Source of the DNA: Octopus vulgaris
Lineage: Eukaryota
DNA length: 64,000 nucleotides
Direction: 5' to 3'
NCBI GenBank assembly: GCA_951406725.2
Contig: OX597814.1
Span: 139,376,001 to 139,440,000, forward strand
Positions 9,101-53,775 of this stretch are shown here, in pieces (position 1 is the first letter of the stretch; every line of letters begins with the position of its first letter). Position numbers and translations under genes: made by a program. The notes below the pieces were generated by a model. The model saw only the letters and a list, made by a program, of their open reading frames with translations, did no database searches and was not told the origin of the DNA.

Positions 9101-9101
9101 T

Positions 9102-9203
9102 AAAATATGGAATGCTTTGCAAATCTGCTTGTCACCCTTGCGCAGGGACCCATGCTAATATTCTCTGTATCTTTCCAGTTTTAGAATATATACTACTGTA
9201 GCT
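9102..9203 (-). pseudogene. diverged, nearly full-length U6 snRNA retrocopy
   Basis: The + strand aaaatatggaatgctttgcaaatctgcttgtcacccttgcgcagggacccatgctaatattctctgtatctttccagttttagaatatatactactgtagc aligns with the reverse complement of the array U6, with many transitions. No promoter is present. Confidence 0.9.
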
Positions 9204-9357
9204 TCTTTTAGTTTCTGTCTACCAAATTCACTCACAAGGATTTGGTTAGCCTGAGGCCATAGTAGAAGACATTTGCCCAAGATTCCATGCTGTGAGACTG
9301 AACCTGGAATCATGTGGTTGAAAAGGAAACTTCTTACCACACAGCCATGCCTGTACC
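9204..9357 (-). mobile_element. 5' half of a SINE fused to the U6 retrocopy
   Basis: Head and core run up to ...aactaaaagaAGC, overlapping U6 ...AGCTAC. Confidence 0.75.
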
Positions 9358-30080: not shown

Positions 30081-30144
30081 ATTATGTTGCTGTTTAGCCC
30101 TGACTGAGCAGACTTATGATTGAAGGCATTCCACTTGTAACCTT

Positions 30145-30563
30145 TTATTTTATTCTTTTATTTGTTTCAGTCATTTGACTGCAGCTATGCTGGAGCACTG
30201 CCTTTAGTTGAACGAATCAACCCCAGGACTTATTCTTTGTAAGCCTAGTACTTATTCTATCGGTCTCTTTTGCCGAACCACTAAGTTACGGAGACGTAAA
30301 CACACCAGCATCGGTTGTCAAGTGATGGGTGGGGGAGACAAACACAGGCATACAATCACTTACACATACACACACATATATATATATACGAATATATATG
30401 ATATGCTTCTTTCAGTTTCCGTCTACCAAATCCACTCACAAGGCTTTGGTTGGCCCTGGGCTATAGTAGAAGACACTTGCCCAAGGTGCCATGCAGTGGG
30501 ACTGAATACAGAACCATGTGGTTGGTAAGCAAGCTACTTAACATACAGCCACTCCTGTGCCTA
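30145..30563 (-). mobile_element. full-length tRNA-derived SINE
   Basis: Same family as 3701-4090. Confidence 0.8.
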
Positions 30564-30794: not shown

Positions 30795-30826
<32 letters not shown>

Positions 30827-30871
30827 TTTATTTACATTTGACAGATATTTGTCCTCATCTTGTTTGTTGTT

Positions 30872-30917
30872 AACACAATGTTTTGGTTGATATACCCTCC
30901 AGCCTTCATCAGGTGTC
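30872..30917 (-). ncRNA. minimal hammerhead ribozyme-like motif (decayed), left arm
   Basis: The - strand reads GACAC-CTGATGA-aGGCTG gagggtatat CAACC-aAAACaTT-GTGTT. GAAACGTT is inferred before CpG decay. Confidence 0.55.
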
Positions 30918-31235
30918 TTGGAGAAATTTCGAACGTGGGTTCTCATGTTCTCATTCCTAAAGTATTTTTTGATGTTATTATTATTATTATTATTATTATT
31001 CAGGTCACTGCCTGGAATCGAACTCTTAATCTTGGGGTTAGTAGCCCGTGCTCTTAACTACTACGCCATATGCCCATGGGCATATGGCATAGTGGTTAAG
31101 AGCACGGGCTACTAACCCCAAGATTAAGAGTTCGATTCCAGGCAGTGACCTGAATAATAATGATAATAATAGTAATAATAATAATAACATCAAAAAATAC
31201 CTTTGGAATGAGAACCCAGGTTCCAAATTTCCGCA

Positions 31236-31279
31236 ACACACCTGATGAGGGCTAGAGGGTACATCCGTTGAAACGTGTT
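31236..31279 (+). ncRNA. minimal hammerhead ribozyme-like motif (decayed), right arm
   Basis: ACACAC-CTGATGA-gggctagagggtacatccgtt-GAAACG-TGTT. Confidence 0.55.
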
Positions 31280-32287
31280 AACAACAAACAAGATGAGGAC
31301 AAATATCCATCAAATGTAAATAATGTACATAATTCCTCATCATATATATTATGTATATAATTTCATATTGAGGTGATCTTGACTTGTTAGTCATCGGTTT
31401 AATGAATTAACTTATTATTTTTAACATATGTTTCTCATAAAAAAGAAATATTTTTAAAATATCCACAACTGCATGTGAATATTTTTTAAGTTACACTTCT
31501 CTTTCTTAATTGAAGCATAGTTTTACATTCTTTATTAAATTATAGTTATTTTCTATCACTAGAATAATATCTAAATTATGTTAGCAAAATAGGTTATTAA
31601 AATTTTCATTTAATTTGTAAATTACTGACTACAGTTGTATGAAAGAAACTAGTAGAAAAATAAAAAAGAAATATTTATTTGAAGTTTAGTTGACAAAAGT
31701 AAACATATAATAATGTTTGAAAATTTACATATGAACTATATTTGCACTTTAATTAGTATTTGATATAGATTTATAGATTTATTAATTTATATATTCATTT
31801 CATTCTTTCTTTTTACCTTGTTTAGTTTCTGTAATCCTTATTTTAAATGTCCTCTTCATAGCCATAACAGCATTTTAATTTCTTCACAGAAAACTGCAAT
31901 TGGGAACCGGCCATCATTGAATCGTCTGTGAAGACCTTTGGTGAACATGTCAGTCTATATATTTGAATATATATATACAGCCTGCTGTGCTCCTTCTCTT
32001 TTTTCCCCTCCCTATCCGCCACTCTTTACTACTCGAAAACTGGTGATGACAGTCCTGCCTCCGGAGACTGGAAGGAGCATACACACATATACACACACCT
32101 GCAATTTTAGGCAAACTTCCTGCGGACATTGGAGTTTTGTGACTGGCTAGTTGGCTGGTTGTCACTCTGTACCCTTAATGTCTTCCCTTTTCTCACTCTG
32201 TACACATTTACATAAATGTACACACACATACAAACATATGCATGTATATATTTATATAAAAGTGTATATATAAATACGTATACATAC

Positions 32288-46620: not shown

Positions 46621-46727
46621 GTACTAGCTACGGCGGTACATATTCTAAAATTGGAACGATACAGAGAAGATTAGTATGGCCCCTGCGCAAGGATGACACG
46701 CAAATTCGTGAAGCGTTCCATATTTTT
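46621..46727 (+). ncRNA. U6: U6 snRNA copy 1 (C55T in the AGC triad; possibly non-functional)
   Basis: ACAGAGA box, ISL and T6 terminator are present. It reads TTAGTATGG instead of TTAGCATGG. Confidence 0.93.
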
Positions 46728-47647
46728 TCTTACTCTTTCTACTGACATGGATATCCATGTTTTTTTATCTTATTGTTATTCTCTTCTCTACCATTAAATT
46801 TATTCGCATTTTCCGTAACTTTTAGAAATTTCATCTAAAGCTTTATAGATCCACTGAATGTGTACAGAGGTTCGTGAACGTAGCGAATTCCTACGCAAGA
46901 CATTCAAAGGTGCTTTTATAAGTTTCTTTGCTTGGTCGTTCGATAAGCTAAGAACAAGAATCAATTCTCTTTCAAAGCACGTTTTTCTAACCACTTATAA
47001 AACGAAAGGCATATCGGACATATATATATATACACTGGCCGAGAGACATTATTTCGATTTGTGATCAAAAAATGAAAGTGGAAACAATAATGATATTAAG
47101 CAACGACCAATCAGGTGTGTTCAATATCATCTTTCCTTTTTTCATAATTTCCTCCAATTCTAATATTTTCAACAACACTACAATGATAAAAATTACGAGA
47201 ATTTATTGGATTTGTGTTTTGGTAAAGCTTGATCAGGGAGACCCTTTATCAAAGACATTCAATCAATGAAACGTGTACACCTGTTTCAGTGGTGCACCCT
47301 ACACTACATTATGATATTAGCTATTGTTGAGATAAAAGTGAAATATTGCAGTTTTTTCCTAGATGCGATGGACTTCATATGTACTCAATCACTGGCTCTT
47401 TTCATGAAGCGTACGCATTGTGATAGTTTTGACAACCTTAAAGAGCTTTCGTTGTGCCTAATTTGAATCAGCAGTGGTTTTCCAGTAAGAAAAATAAATA
47501 GACCGAGCTAAGTATACATTTGCGCACAAAATATATGATTTTCAACATTTTCAAGTAAACAGATATGGTAAGGACAATCGTATGTAGGAATGATAAATAT
47601 GATAAACACCTTCTAGAATTTTCTATATCGTTATTATTATTACAAAT

Positions 47648-47725
47648 ATGCAAATGAGGCAACCTAGTATGGGTAAGTATACGAGATAGGGCATGTATAT
47701 AATGAGAGGCTTAGGGAAAGCTATT
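47648..47725 (+). promoter_or_regulatory. U6 copy 2 promoter
   Basis: Octamer at -78, TATATA at -30. Confidence 0.75.
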
Positions 47726-47749
47726 GTACTAGCTACGGCGGTACATATT

Positions 47750-47782
<33 letters not shown>

Positions 47783-47832
47783 GGCCCCTGCGCAAGGATG
47801 ACACGCAAATTCGTGAAGCGTTCCATATTTTT
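47726..47832 (+). ncRNA. U6: U6 snRNA copy 2
   Basis: Identical to recalled human U6 from nt 25 onward; T6 terminator. Confidence 0.97.
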
Positions 47833-48743
47833 TCTTACTCTTTCTACGGACATGTCCATTTTTTTTTCTTATTGTCATTCTCTTCTCTTCCATTAAATTT
47901 ATTCGCATCTTCCGTAACTTTTAGAAATTTCATCTAATACTATATAGGTCCACTGAATGTGTACAGAAGTTGGTGATCGTAGGGAATTCCTACGAAGCCA
48001 TTCAAAAGTGCTTTTATAAGTTTCTTTGCTTGGTCGTTCGATAAGCTAGGAACAAGAATCAATTCTCTTTGAAAGCACGTTTTTCTAACTACTTATAAAA
48101 CGAAAGGTATATCGGACATGTATATATACACAGTCCGAGAGACATTATTTCGATTTGTGATCAAAAAATGAAAGTGGAAATATTAATGATATTAAGCAAC
48201 GACCACTCAGGTGTGTTCAATATCATGTTTCCATTTTTTCATAATTTCCTCCAATTCTAATATTTTCAACAACACTACAATGATAAAAATTACGAGAATT
48301 AATTGTATTTATGTTTTGGTAAAGCTTAATCAGGGATACCCTTTATCAAAGACATTCATTAAATGAAACGTGTACACCTGTTTCAGTTGTACACCCATCA
48401 CAACATTATGATATTAGCTATTGTTGAGATAAAAGTGAAATATTGCAGTTTTTCCGAGATGCGATGGACTTCATATGTACTCAATCACCGGCTCTTTTCA
48501 TGAAGAGTGCGCATTGTGATAGTTTTGACAACTTTAAAGAGCGTTCCTTGTGCCTAATTTGAATCAGCAGTGGTTTTCCAGTAAGAAAAATAAATAGAGC
48601 GAGCTAAATATACATTTGCGCACAAAATATATGATTTTCAACATTTTAAAGTAAACAGATATGGCAAGGACAATCATATCTAGGAATGGTAAATATGATA
48701 AACACCTTCTAGAATTTACTATATCGTTATTATTATTACAAAT

Positions 48744-48821
48744 ATGCAAATGAGGCAGCCTATTATGGGTAAGTGTACGAGATAGGGCATGTATATATTG
48801 AGAGGCTTAGGGAAAGCTGGT
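48744..48821 (+). promoter_or_regulatory. U6 copy 3 promoter
   Basis: Octamer at -78, TATATA at -30. Confidence 0.75.
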
Positions 48822-48845
48822 GTACTAGCTACGGCGGTACATATT

Positions 48846-48878
<33 letters not shown>

Positions 48879-48928
48879 GGCCCCTGCGCAAGGATGACAC
48901 GCAAATTCGTGAAGCGTTCCATATTTTT
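48822..48928 (+). ncRNA. U6: U6 snRNA copy 3
   Basis: Same sequence as copy 2. Confidence 0.97.
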
Positions 48929-50121
48929 TCTTACTCTTTCTACTGACATGGATATCCATTTTTTTTTCTTATTCTCATTCTCTTCTCTTCCATTAAATTT
49001 TCTGTAACTTTTAGAAATTTCATCTAAAACTATATAGTTCCAGTGAATATATACAGAAATTGGTGAACGTAACGAATGAAAGTGCTTTCATAAGTTTCTT
49101 TACTCCCATTCAATTCCAAGTACAAGTTCGGCAACATTTTGGAAAGTAAAAGGAGAAACAGTTATAATAAAAGGATTTTTAAAAACCCAGCTATTTCAAA
49201 ATATCCGGTTTGCCCATACCCAATTTTCCAACGTTGTTTTTAATTTCACGTTTAAAACCATGGCGATTAAAATTCTTAATATTTTATCCTCAACTTGATA
49301 ATTTTTAAAAGTTATCCTCTCTCCTGTCTCCATTCAGACTGTCGTTCACTTGCAAATGCGCGTATGCAGATTTTGCAATCAAATAGACACAACCAGGGCA
49401 GACTTTATGTGGTCGGTTGTTCGATAAACTAGAAAGAAGAATCAATTCTCCTTGAAAGCACATTTTTCTAACCACTTATAAAACTAAATATACGTCGGAC
49501 ATATAAATAGTCGGAGAGACATTCTTTCGATTTCTGATCAAAAAATGAAAGCGGAAATATTAATGATATTAAGCAACGACCAATCAGACGTGTTCAATAT
49601 CATCTTTCCTTTTTTTCATAATTTCCTCCAATTCTAATATTTTCAACAACACTACAATGATAAAAATTACGAGAATTTATTGGATTTGTGTTTTGGTAAA
49701 GCTTGATCAGGGAGACCCTTTATCAAAGACATTCAATCAATGAAACGTGTACACCTGTTTCAGTGGTGCACCCTACACTACATTATGATATTAGCTATTG
49801 TTGAGATAAAAGTGAAATATTGCAGTTTTTTCCTAGATGCGATGGACTTCATATGTACTCAATCACTGGCTCTTTTCATGAAACGTACGCATTGTGATAG
49901 TTTTGACAACTTTAAAGAGCTTTCGTTGTGCCTAATTTGAACCATCAGTGGTTTTCCAGTAAGAAAAATAAATAGACCAAGCTAAATATACATTTGCGCA
50001 CAAAATATATGATTTTCAACATTTTAAAGTAAAGAGATATGGTAAGGACAATCGTATGTAGGAATGATAAATATGATAAACACCTTCTAGAATTTACTAT
50101 ATCGTTATTATTATTACAAAT

Positions 50122-50199
50122 ATGCAAATGAGGCAGCCTATTATGGGTAAGTGTACGTGATAGGGCATGTATATATTGAGGGGCTTAGGGAAAGCTGTT
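50122..50199 (+). promoter_or_regulatory. U6 copy 4 promoter
   Basis: Octamer at -78, TATATA at -30. Confidence 0.75.
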
Positions 50200-50223
50200 G
50201 TACTAGCTACGGCGGTACATATT

Positions 50224-50256
<33 letters not shown>

Positions 50257-50306
50257 GGCCCCTGCGCAAGGATGACACGCAAATTCGTGAAGCGTTCCAT
50301 ATTTTT
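50200..50306 (+). ncRNA. U6: U6 snRNA copy 4
   Basis: Same sequence as copy 2. Confidence 0.97.
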
Positions 50307-51203
50307 TCTTACTCTTTCTACGGACATGTCCATTTTTTTTCTTATTGTCATTCTCTTCTCTTCCATTAAATTTATTCGCATCTTCCGTAACTTTTAGAAA
50401 TTTCATCTAATACTATATAGGTCCACTGAATGTGTGCAGAAGTTGGTGATCGTAGGGAATTCCTACGAAGCCATTCAAAAGTGCTTTTATAAGTTTCTTT
50501 GCTTGGTCGTTCGATAAGCTAGGAACAAGAATCAATTCTCTTTCAAAGCACGTTTTTCTAACTACTTATAAAACGAAAGGTATATCGGACATGTATATAT
50601 ACACAGTCCGAGAGACATTATTTCGATTTGTGATCAAAAAATGAAAGTGGAAATATTAATGATATTAAGCAACGACCACTCAGGCGTGTTCAATATCATC
50701 TTTCCTTTTTTTCATAATTTCCTCCAATTCTAATATTTTCAACAACACTACAATGATAAAAATTACGAGAATTTATTGTATTTATGTTTTGGTAAAGCTT
50801 GATCAGGGAGACCCTTTTTCAAAGGCATTCATTCAATGAAACGTGTACATTTCTTTCAGTTACATTATGATATTAGCTATTGTTGAGATAAAAGTGAAAT
50901 ATTGCAGTTGTTTCCTAGATGCGTTGGACTTCATATGTACTCAATCACTGGCTCTTTTTATGAAGCGTACGCATTGTGATAGTTTTGACAACCTTAAAGA
51001 GCTTTCCTTTTGCCTAATTTGAATCAGCAGTGGTTTTCCAGTAAGAAAAATAAATAGACCGAGCTAAATATACATTTGTGCACAAAATATATGATTTTTA
51101 ACATTTTAAAGTAAACAGATATGGTAAGGACAATCGTATGTAGGAATGATAAATATGATAAACACCTTCAAGAATTTACTATATCGTTATTATTATTACA
51201 GAT

Positions 51204-51281
51204 ATGCAAATGAGGCAGCCTATTAGGGGTAAGTATACGAGATAGGGCATGTATATATTCTGAAGCTTAGGGTAAGCTGTT
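51204..51281 (+). promoter_or_regulatory. U6 copy 5 promoter
   Basis: Octamer at -78, TATATA at -30. Confidence 0.75.
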
Positions 51282-51305
51282 GTACTAGCTACGGCGGTAC
51301 ATATT

Positions 51306-51338
<33 letters not shown>

Positions 51339-51388
51339 GGCCCCTGCGCAAGGATGACACGCAAATTCGTGAAGCGTTCCATATTTTT
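51282..51388 (+). ncRNA. U6: U6 snRNA copy 5
   Basis: Same sequence as copy 2. Confidence 0.97.
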
Positions 51389-52237
51389 TCTTACTCTTTC
51401 TACTGACATGGATATCCATTTTTTTTTCTTATTGTCATTCTCTTCTCTTCCATTAAATTTATTCATATCTTCCGTAACTTTTAGAAATTTCATCTAAAAC
51501 TATATAGTTCCCGTGAATATATATAGAAAATTCCTACGCAAGTCATTCTAAAGTGCTTACATAGGTTTCTTTGCTTGGTCGCTCGATAAGCTTGGAACAT
51601 GAATCAATTCTCTTTGAAAGCTCGTTTTTCTAACCACTTATAAAACGAAAGGTATATCGGACATGTATATATACAGTCCGAGAGACATTATTTCGATTTG
51701 TTATCAAAAAATGAAAGTGGAAACATTAGTGATATTAAGCAACGACCAATCAGGCGTGTTCAATATCATCTTTCCTTTTTTTCATAATTTCCTCCAATTC
51801 TAATATTTTCAACAATACTACAATGATAAAAATTACGAGAATTTATTGTATTTATGTTTTGGTAAAGCTTGATCAGGGAAACCATTTTTCAAAGGCATTC
51901 ATTCAATGAAACGTGTACACCTGTTTCAGTTGTGCACCCTACACTACATTATGATATTAGCTATTGTTGGACTTCATATGTCTGGCTCTTTTCATGAAGC
52001 GTACGCATTGTGATAGTTTTGACAACCTTAAAGAGCTTTCGTTGTGCCTAATTTGAACAATCAGTGGTTTTCCAGTAAGAAAAATAAATAGACCAAGCTA
52101 AATATACATTTGCGCACAAAATATATGATTTTCAACATTTTAAAGTAAACAGATATGGTAAGGACAATCGTAACTAGGAATGATAAATATGATAAACACC
52201 TTCTAGAATTTACTATATCCTTATTATTATTACAAAT

Positions 52238-52315
52238 ATGCAAATGAGGCAGCCTGTTATGGGTAAGTGTACGAGATAGGGCATGTATATATTGAGAGGC
52301 TTAGGAAAAGCTGTT
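52238..52315 (+). promoter_or_regulatory. U6 copy 6 promoter
   Basis: Octamer at -78, TATATA at -30. Confidence 0.75.
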
Positions 52316-52339
52316 GTACTAGCTACGGCGGTACATATT

Positions 52340-52372
<33 letters not shown>

Positions 52373-52422
52373 GGCCCCTGCGCAAGGATGACACGCAAAT
52401 TCGTGAAGCGTTCCATATTTTT
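52316..52422 (+). ncRNA. U6: U6 snRNA copy 6
   Basis: Same sequence as copy 2, with a longer T run. Confidence 0.97.
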
Positions 52423-53590
52423 TTTTACTGTTTCTACTGACATGGATATCCATTTTTTTTCTTATTGTCATTCTCTTCTCTTCCATTAAATTTATTCGCA
52501 TCTTCCGTAACTTTTAGAAATTTCATCTAAAACTATATAGTTCCAGTGAATATATACAGAAATTGGTGAACGTAACGAATTCTTACGCAAGCCTTTGAAA
52601 GTGCATTTATAAGTTTCTTTACTCCCATTCAATTCCAAGTACCAGTTCGGCAACATTTTGGAAAATAAAAGGAGAAACAGTTATAATAAGAGATTTTAAA
52701 AAACCCAGCTATTTCAAAATATCAGGTTTGCCCATACTCAATTTTCCAACGTTGTTTTTAATTACACGTTTCAAACCATGATCCTCTCTCCTGTCTCCAT
52801 TCAGACTGTCGTTCACTTGCAAATGCGCGTATGCAGATTTTGCAATCAAATAGACCCAGCCAGGGCAGACTTTATGTGGTCGGTTGTTCGATAAACTAGA
52901 AAGAAGAATCAATTCTCCTTGAAAGCACATTTTTCTAACCACTTATAAAACGAAATATACGTCGGGCATATATATTGTTGGAGAGACATTCTTTCGATTT
53001 GTTATCAAAAAATGAAAGCGGAAATATTAATGATATTAAGCAACGACCAATCAGGCGTGTTCAATATCATCTTTCCTTTTTTTTCATAATTTCCTCCAAT
53101 TCTAATATTTTTCAACAACACTACAATGATAAAAATGACGAGATTTTATTGTATTTGTGTTTTGGTAAAGCTTGATCAGGGAGACCCTTTTTCAAAGGCA
53201 TTCATTCAATGAAACGTGTACACCTGTTTCACTTGTGCACCCTACACTACATTATGATATTAGCTATTGTTGAAATAAAAGTGAAATATTGCAGTTTTTT
53301 CCTAGATGCGATGGACTTCATATGTACTCAATCACTGGCTCTTTTCATGAAGCGTATGCATTGTGATAGTTTTGACAACTTTAAAGAGCTTTCCTTGTGC
53401 CTAAATTGAACAATCAGTGGTTTTCCAGTAAGAAAAATAAATTGACCGAGCTAAATATACATTTGCGCACAAAATATATGATTTTCAACATTTTAAAGTA
53501 AACAGATATGGTAAGGACAATCGTATGTAGGAATGATGAATATGATAAACACCTTCTAGAATTTACTATATCCTTATTATTATTACAAAT

Positions 53591-53668
53591 ATGCAAATGA
53601 GGCATCCTATTATGGGTAAGTGTACGAGATAGGGCATGTATATATTGTGAGGCTTAGGAAACGCTGTT
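53591..53668 (+). promoter_or_regulatory. U6 copy 7 promoter
   Basis: Octamer at -78, TATATA at -30. Confidence 0.75.
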
Positions 53669-53692
53669 GTACTAGCTACGGCGGTACATATT

Positions 53693-53725
<33 letters not shown>

Positions 53726-53775
53726 GACCCCTGCTCAAGGATGACACGCAAATTCGTGAAGCGTTCCATATTTTT
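53669..53775 (+). ncRNA. U6: U6 snRNA copy 7 (variant G59A, G67T)
   Basis: AGCATGACCCCTGCTCAAGG versus canonical AGCATGGCCCCTGCGCAAGG. Confidence 0.93.

Follow-up and report, generated by a model that had tools for sequence, protein, structure and literature searches.

What kind of element is the inverted repeat found at positions 30828 to 31341 of the 64,000-nt stretch of Octopus vulgaris DNA analysed here (the window), and how were its many relatives in the genome copied? A sequence-only reading had taken it for a free-standing, retrozyme-like SINE, in which a tRNA-type head for RNA polymerase III (Pol III) is fused to a minimal hammerhead ribozyme and which is mobilised by a Penelope-type reverse transcriptase (RT). 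Both arms are decayed pseudo-LTR (pLTR) copies, and the retrotransposon to which this pLTR belongs is an autonomous one of Penelope/Poseidon type in the same genome. The supposed enzyme source was correctly named, and the free-standing SINE has to be given up, as the autonomous element carries the entire arm, head included.

The two arms stand head to head, as had been described, and meet at 31076/31077. The inverted repeat comprises 111-nt arms that are 93% complementary with a spacing of 0 nt, and identity over the whole arms is 84%. The right arm (31077..31341, + strand) is one pLTR copy that runs from the start of the head into the optional 3' tail; arms of about 245 bp had been proposed, and this one in fact extends to about 31341. 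The left arm (30828..31076, - strand) is the inverted pLTR copy and ends at the first of the two 3' end sites of the family. The junction is a palindrome, GCCC-AT-GGGC (31072..31081), where the autonomous element has GCCC-AC-GGGC, and the AT of the window is consistent with CpG decay. Each arm has the expected tRNA-derived head with A and B boxes. In the right arm it occupies 31078..31152 (+), with A box TGGCATAGTGG at 31085-31095 and B box GAGTTCGATTCC at 31128-31139; in the left arm it occupies 31001..31075 (-), with a variant A box, TGGCGTAGTAG, at 31068-31058 and an identical B box, GAGTTCGATTCC, at 31025-31014. The (AAT)n linkers, also predicted, follow at 31153..31187 (+) and 30975..31000 (-), and their length differs among copies of the family. 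The CTGATGA cores lie at 31242-31248 in the right arm and 30912-30906 in the left, within broken minimal type I hammerheads at 31237..31279 (+) and 30872..30917 (-), respectively. From an ATG at 31208, the right arm contains the first ~45 codons of the ORF of the Penelope-like element (PLE) (31208..31341, +), a segment that includes the hammerhead and the tail and, in this decayed copy, one stop codon. The 'A-rich end' described earlier is the start of this protein-coding frame, and no poly(A)-type tail is present. A (TA)n microsatellite (30799..30826) marks the left insertion boundary, inspection by eye revealed no target-site duplication at the pair, and no pieces of the PLE ORF were found in the window. 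Directly to the left of the pair, at 30133-30500, lies another interspersed SINE-like repeat.

Neither arm of the window retains an intact hammerhead. The left one shows G12>A, CpG decay and a decayed stem III palindrome, and in the right one stem II is disrupted and the cleavage triplet is hit by a 3-nt deletion. Accordingly, a type I descriptor, which gave 0 matches in 200 shuffled control windows, gave none in the window, both arms failing it. The search of the genome with one arm, which had been recommended, returned 3,599 candidate places, of which 40 were scored, and a natural copy, L061, passes the descriptor with a stem I of 5 bp and a stem II of 6 bp. Its CUGAUGA, single extra A before stem II, GAAA, palindromic ACGU stem III and GUU site agree with the features that PMC4209133, in its relevant part, gives for minimal hammerheads of PLEs. 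Among arms not selected on the hammerhead, the descriptor passes in 6 of 17 and in 4 of 30, and the 40-nt intact core has 1,165 exact matches in the genome, compared with 0 for a reversed control. Given the passing natural copy and these exact cores elsewhere, the hammerhead reconstructed earlier by combining the two arms is borne out for the family, though not for either arm of the pair. Rfam scans detected neither a hammerhead nor a tRNA in the window, the pair or L061; the folding z-score of L061 is only -1.2, and the hammerhead does not stand out in minimum-energy folds. A minimal type I hammerhead motif is present in the family, as first proposed.

In a partly selected sample of 125 arms, the free position N7 is T in 106 and A in 16, and the 3-nt deletion of the cleavage triplet is present in 33. 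Since so many arms have lost the triplet, cutting appears dispensable for copying. The deletion is in-frame and occurs in both long and short copies, as a predicted cleavage-dead variant that still spread. A hammerhead motif was also found at 19 of the 80 loci of distant relatives, with stems unrelated in sequence yet paired. Read as codons, the hammerhead gives the PDxG..PKR-like stretch with which the related PLE proteins P0008 and P0011 start; such an N-terminal stretch offers a protein-level signature for finding PLE ribozymes.

The link to an autonomous element came from the sequence flanking the head. Five loci have a common sequence ahead of the head, and its translation is the C-terminus of an endonuclease. 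Searching the genome with this endonuclease sequence gave 2,932 candidates; 30 loci were retrieved, a set that includes the query itself and six loci that look like one segmental duplication, and by BLAST the arm follows immediately after the endonuclease in 29 of them, the 30th retaining 7 nt of the head and the (AAT)n. At the other end of the element, 21 of 30 ORF 5'-end loci have a same-strand, variably truncated arm directly upstream, and in a near-complete copy the arm tail runs in frame into the ORF. In copy L308, the frame that opens at the ATG before the hammerhead stays open across the hammerhead and the tail, and its N-terminal reading is 45% identical to the N-terminus of the relative P0008 (E 3e-20). 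The ORF contains an RT domain (PF00078, E 1e-9), 40% identical to an Anolis protein, and its C-terminal part is 32% identical to the endonuclease region of the Anolis PLE-type protein P0043 (E 8e-19); the Pfam GIY-YIG profile gave no match to this C-terminal domain. The RT identity and the domain order suggest placement in the Penelope/Poseidon clade. All copies of the element that were examined are decayed. The order of the unit is head, (AAT)n, hammerhead within the first ORF codons, tail, the rest of the ORF (RT, endonuclease) and head again. Because the pLTR of the autonomous element includes the head, the arm is not a separate SINE with a borrowed PLE 3' end: the autonomous PLE that had been sought does exist, and it shares the whole arm rather than a 3' end only. 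The family is also present, with the same fold-back ends, in contigs from two runs of organisms coded B and F.

A second PLE family of this genome, brought up by a Pfam GIY-YIG search, was considered as a partner and rejected, its 30 loci sharing only the (AAT)n with the arm; within 1.5 kb downstream it showed no matching hammerhead. This family (e.g. L037, L042) is young, with many uninterrupted frames of 781 aa and a GIY-YIG domain of Cys/His type. Separately, many arms (L076, L084, L086, L087, L089, L126, L130, L131 and L138) have another repeat attached or inserted at the (AAT)n, which suggests that insertions favour the linker. The endonuclease of lizard Poseidon cuts preferentially at ATT, according to the sections of PMC11167929 that cover it.

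Where do copies of this element begin and end? Exact 20-mers, with control counts of 0, occur 859 times in the endonuclease (at about -170), 929 times at -27 to -8 and 3,429 times in the head (+2 to +21). Copy number thus rises by 8% across 146 nt upstream and then 3.7-fold across about 27 nt at the start of the head, a step that is approximate because the head probe is degenerate (two positions, one CpG) and fold-back partners can be counted twice. Among loci retrieved with the head probe, 24 of 30 have no PLE sequence upstream and 6 are endonuclease-joined (three of these being one duplication). Most of the 24 start 2-6 nt before the GGGC or fold back with a 2-nt spacer. ORF-joined copies behave similarly: of those reaching the head, 6 clear cases begin there and 2 continue into the endonuclease, a count drawn from 99 of 125 junction matches and the 30 ORF 5'-end loci that omits three loci with detached head fragments and one unjoined to the ORF. 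Given the two copies that continue upstream of the 5' head, some templates must have begun further up or have been circular. At the 3' side, the family has two end sites about 35 nt apart, used by 72 and 60 of 141 arms. The suggestion that the inverted structure is a PLE hallmark proved sound, as an inverted partner is present at the 5' side in about two thirds of the loci (20 of 30 and 19 of 30, some loci being both sides of one insertion). By comparison, a second same-strand arm was seen at 1 of 30 hammerhead-probe loci.

The head itself was compared with 35 tRNA sequences carrying 7 isotype labels, a set that leaves the source isotype tentative, and aligned best with tRNA-Arg(TCG) of its own genome (z 9.0). 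The octopus tRNA-SINEs OR1 and OR2 have an Arg origin. The spacing from A to B box in the head is as in tRNA. ARAGORN detected no tRNA in the window, and a relaxed ARAGORN run on 80 related loci gave noise only. Between the ORF end and the hammerhead of related elements, an A box was found in 0 of 14 and a weak B-like match in 1 of 14; the relatives used for this and for the TTTT comparison below are ~26-40% identical to the family, the closest ones, P0001-P0013 (47-66% identical), lying outside the set. Since no A and B box pair occurs in the 14 relatives, the head and the (AAT)n look like a lineage-specific gain.

If Pol III reads the element from this head, the sense strand should lack TTTT, since transcription would terminate there. 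In the column majority built from 100 aligned pieces (2,358 nt) there are 12 TTT runs and no TTTT, and TTTT density is 0.37 per kb in the decayed copies vs 2.9 per kb in 34 related ORFs. Only 3 of these 34 ORFs are free of TTTT, all of them T-poor, and among the 19 T-matched relatives there is none (P about 0.004 allowing for rate differences). The other PLE family of the genome has 6-7 TTTT per 1.8 kb. Shuffling tests were less decisive: a synonymous-codon shuffle of 480 codons gave a non-significant deficit (P 0.087), and a dinucleotide shuffle gave P below 0.05 in only 1 of 5 single copies. Two RNA-seq runs from organism B (8,326 and 5,974 reads) showed no pile of starts or ends, no direct sign of a Pol III transcript and no cut sites, so that the RNA ends expected at the cleavage site were not seen; this is a weak test, the libraries being 150-nt paired, which would lose short uncapped RNAs, and the reference being the 3-nt deletion variant without the cleavage triplet. 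The reads fall about equally in both orientations, and 64-69% of them extend into unrelated sequence.

The architecture, the start of copies at the head, the two 3' ends and the inverted partners are established by these results. On balance, the tRNA-derived head probably acts as an internal Pol III promoter and marks the 5' end of the RNA, the short copies arising by internal priming and run-off. Pol III would start the element RNA at the head inside the pLTR, and the protein of the element would bind the region of the ORF start and prime reverse transcription internally at one of the two 3' sites, a step that we infer by analogy with lizard Poseidon. For the Poseidon protein, the initial 172 nt of the ORF are required; it primes internally in vitro at two sites that define the tail, its endonuclease cuts at ATT and hammerhead cleavage is not required (PMC11167929, in the parts that describe the assay). 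When priming occurs in the downstream pLTR, the products would be long and extend into the endonuclease. When it occurs in the upstream pLTR, or on a short RNA that Pol III makes from any intact head, synthesis would run off the RNA 5' end after about 290 nt and yield short SINE-like copies. At the 5'-terminal palindrome, GCCC-AC-GGGC, the end of the cDNA could fold back and prime the second strand, giving head-to-head pairs like the present one, and inverted PLE structures like those found here are described in PMC8557442. Cutting by the hammerhead is predicted only for a dimer or with the help of protein and is likely unneeded for copying. A wider claim is possible and put forward tentatively: that an autonomous coding element captured a tRNA-derived promoter, came to use Pol III for its entire 2.6-kb RNA and was purged of TTTT, so that one RNA gives rise to full-length copies and to thousands of short SINE-like ones.

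The same starts could, however, have another cause. The head may be a passive relic of a tRNA-derived insertion, with Pol II transcribing the element from upstream and the RT stalling or folding back at the TGCCC-AC-GGGCA palindrome, or with the tRNA-like fold being cut. The autonomous element itself has the palindrome, and exact fold-backs with a spacer of 2 nt account for many junctions. One stopping point is shared by about 73% of first-pass copies and by 6 of 8 second-pass ones, as a stop intrinsic to the template predicts. The missing pile of starts in RNA-seq and the fact that the PLE promoters described in the sections at hand of PMC8557442 and PMC6765202 are not of tRNA type also fit this account. 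It requires, however, that a 5-bp hairpin halt the majority of cDNAs in a stretch of about 27 nt, whereas the 146 nt upstream halt only 8%, and it leaves unexplained both the TTTT-free sense strand and the intact A and B boxes on a head whose cloverleaf is lost. The start-site counts fit Pol III initiation and a palindrome stall alike; what speaks for Pol III is only the boxes and the deficit of TTTT, and we regard the stall as an unlikely though serious explanation. A point against the Pol III promoter is that the translation of an uncapped RNA is left without explanation.

Two further accounts treat the short element as a replicon of its own. It might, as in the strict form of the first proposal, be a self-propagating SINE lineage, transcribed from solo copies, mobilised in trans and later recombined onto the autonomous element. 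Short head-started copies do exceed endonuclease-joined heads ~3 to 1, a head with (AAT)n resembles a simple SINE, and the PLE junction has a palindrome similar to the short fold-backs at solo 5' ends. However, the N7 T/A, 3-nt deletion and G/A (after the B box) variants are found in both classes (Fisher P 0.6-1.0), in a test of 8 endonuclease-joined and 13 free head-bearing arms that is low in power because only 49 arms passed the filter, and ORF-joined upstream pLTRs likewise begin at the head; we consider such a lineage improbable. A retrozyme, in which the hammerhead cuts tandem units that are then circularised and copied by rolling-circle reverse transcription, would account for a minimal type I hammerhead with a palindromic ACGU stem III and for the two copies that continue past an upstream hammerhead into another unit, as could result from a full-length template in circular form. 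Yet the short copies are dispersed and inverted, with the tandem arrangement confined to the single hammerhead-probe locus noted above, their ends are fixed at the head and at the two tail sites, none of them at the cleavage site, and the predicted cleavage-dead variant is common. In the absence of any permutation at the cleavage site, the retrozyme-like character first assigned to this repeat does not hold, and we find this route very improbable indeed.

Among known systems, the closest is Poseidon of Anolis carolinensis which, in the portions of PMC11167929 and PMC8557442 concerned, also has one ORF with an RT and, at its C-terminus, a GIY-YIG-type domain, a pLTR hammerhead overlapping the ORF start, an optional tail of 30-40 nt, 5' truncation with an inverted 5' copy, and AT-rich targets. 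Unlike Poseidon as described there, the octopus pLTR holds, after the ORF end and before the hammerhead, a 75-nt tRNA-derived segment with A and B boxes and an (AAT)n; octopus copies that reach this segment mostly start at it. The schistosome elements Sm-alpha and Sj-alpha likewise have a type I hammerhead preceded by a Pol III-type promoter; in the summary given by the review PMC6765202 they are non-coding, tandem and dependent on multimer cleavage, whereas the octopus unit is the terminal repeat of an autonomous element, dispersed or inverted. Metazoan non-LTR retrozymes (bioRxiv 10.64898/2026.07.22.740005) are likewise PLE-linked and bear a type I hammerhead in non-coding, pLTR-derived units; these are tandem, with a hammerhead per unit, and the available portion of the preprint has 0 occurrences of a tRNA head or Pol III. 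In TRIMp3 elements (Cassandra, Helenus and Ajax), a small-RNA-derived Pol III promoter, probably from a SINE insertion, sits in the terminal repeat, but these are non-autonomous LTR elements, and their autonomous partners are argued to need Pol II (PMC10886601, in the passages on promoters), whereas in the octopus the promoter-like head is part of the autonomous coding element. Finally, the octopus tRNA-SINEs OR1, OR2 and OK, cited in PMC4824008 and PMC4758252, also have a tRNA-derived head and are compared here by description, so that our head may equal one of theirs; OR1 or OR2 is called a CORE-SINE in the excerpts of these two papers.

In the searched portions of the literature, no tRNA-headed pLTR, Pol III-driven PLE or octopus hammerhead was found, and Repbase, Dfam or SINEBase may list the family as Penelope or SINE. 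The accessible text of an octopus repeat annotation paper (PMC13282606) has no mention of a hammerhead, and the motif is absent from one of its supplements. A PLE with a pLTR hammerhead is of a known kind, and a tRNA-type promoter-like head in the pLTR of an autonomous element is new within the literature so searched.

Thousands of copies that annotation would divide into 'SINE' and 'Penelope' belong to one family. SINE-like elements are normally passengers of LINEs, and retroelements with coding capacity are taken to require Pol II, as PMC10886601 states for LTR partners. If the head does act as a Pol III promoter, this would be a SINE born inside its own carrier, and a PLE with a tRNA-type pLTR promoter would offer a route to SINE-like progeny and to retrozyme-like or Sm-alpha-like repeats. 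A long coding transcript made by Pol III could then be tested in a concrete case, and such transcription would be unusual in a transposon with an enzyme of its own. With the start point of the PLE RNA given in this way, a fold-back origin of the inverted ends, at a 5' palindrome, would become testable in the existing in vitro Poseidon assay.

The same window also contains U6 snRNA genes. A lone, weaker U6 copy lies at 9101-9204 (-) and lacks the upstream sequence of the cluster found further along. That cluster is a tandem array of seven full-score U6 genes at 46621-53775 (+), spaced about 1.0-1.4 kb apart, which have in common an upstream box and a TATA-like element.
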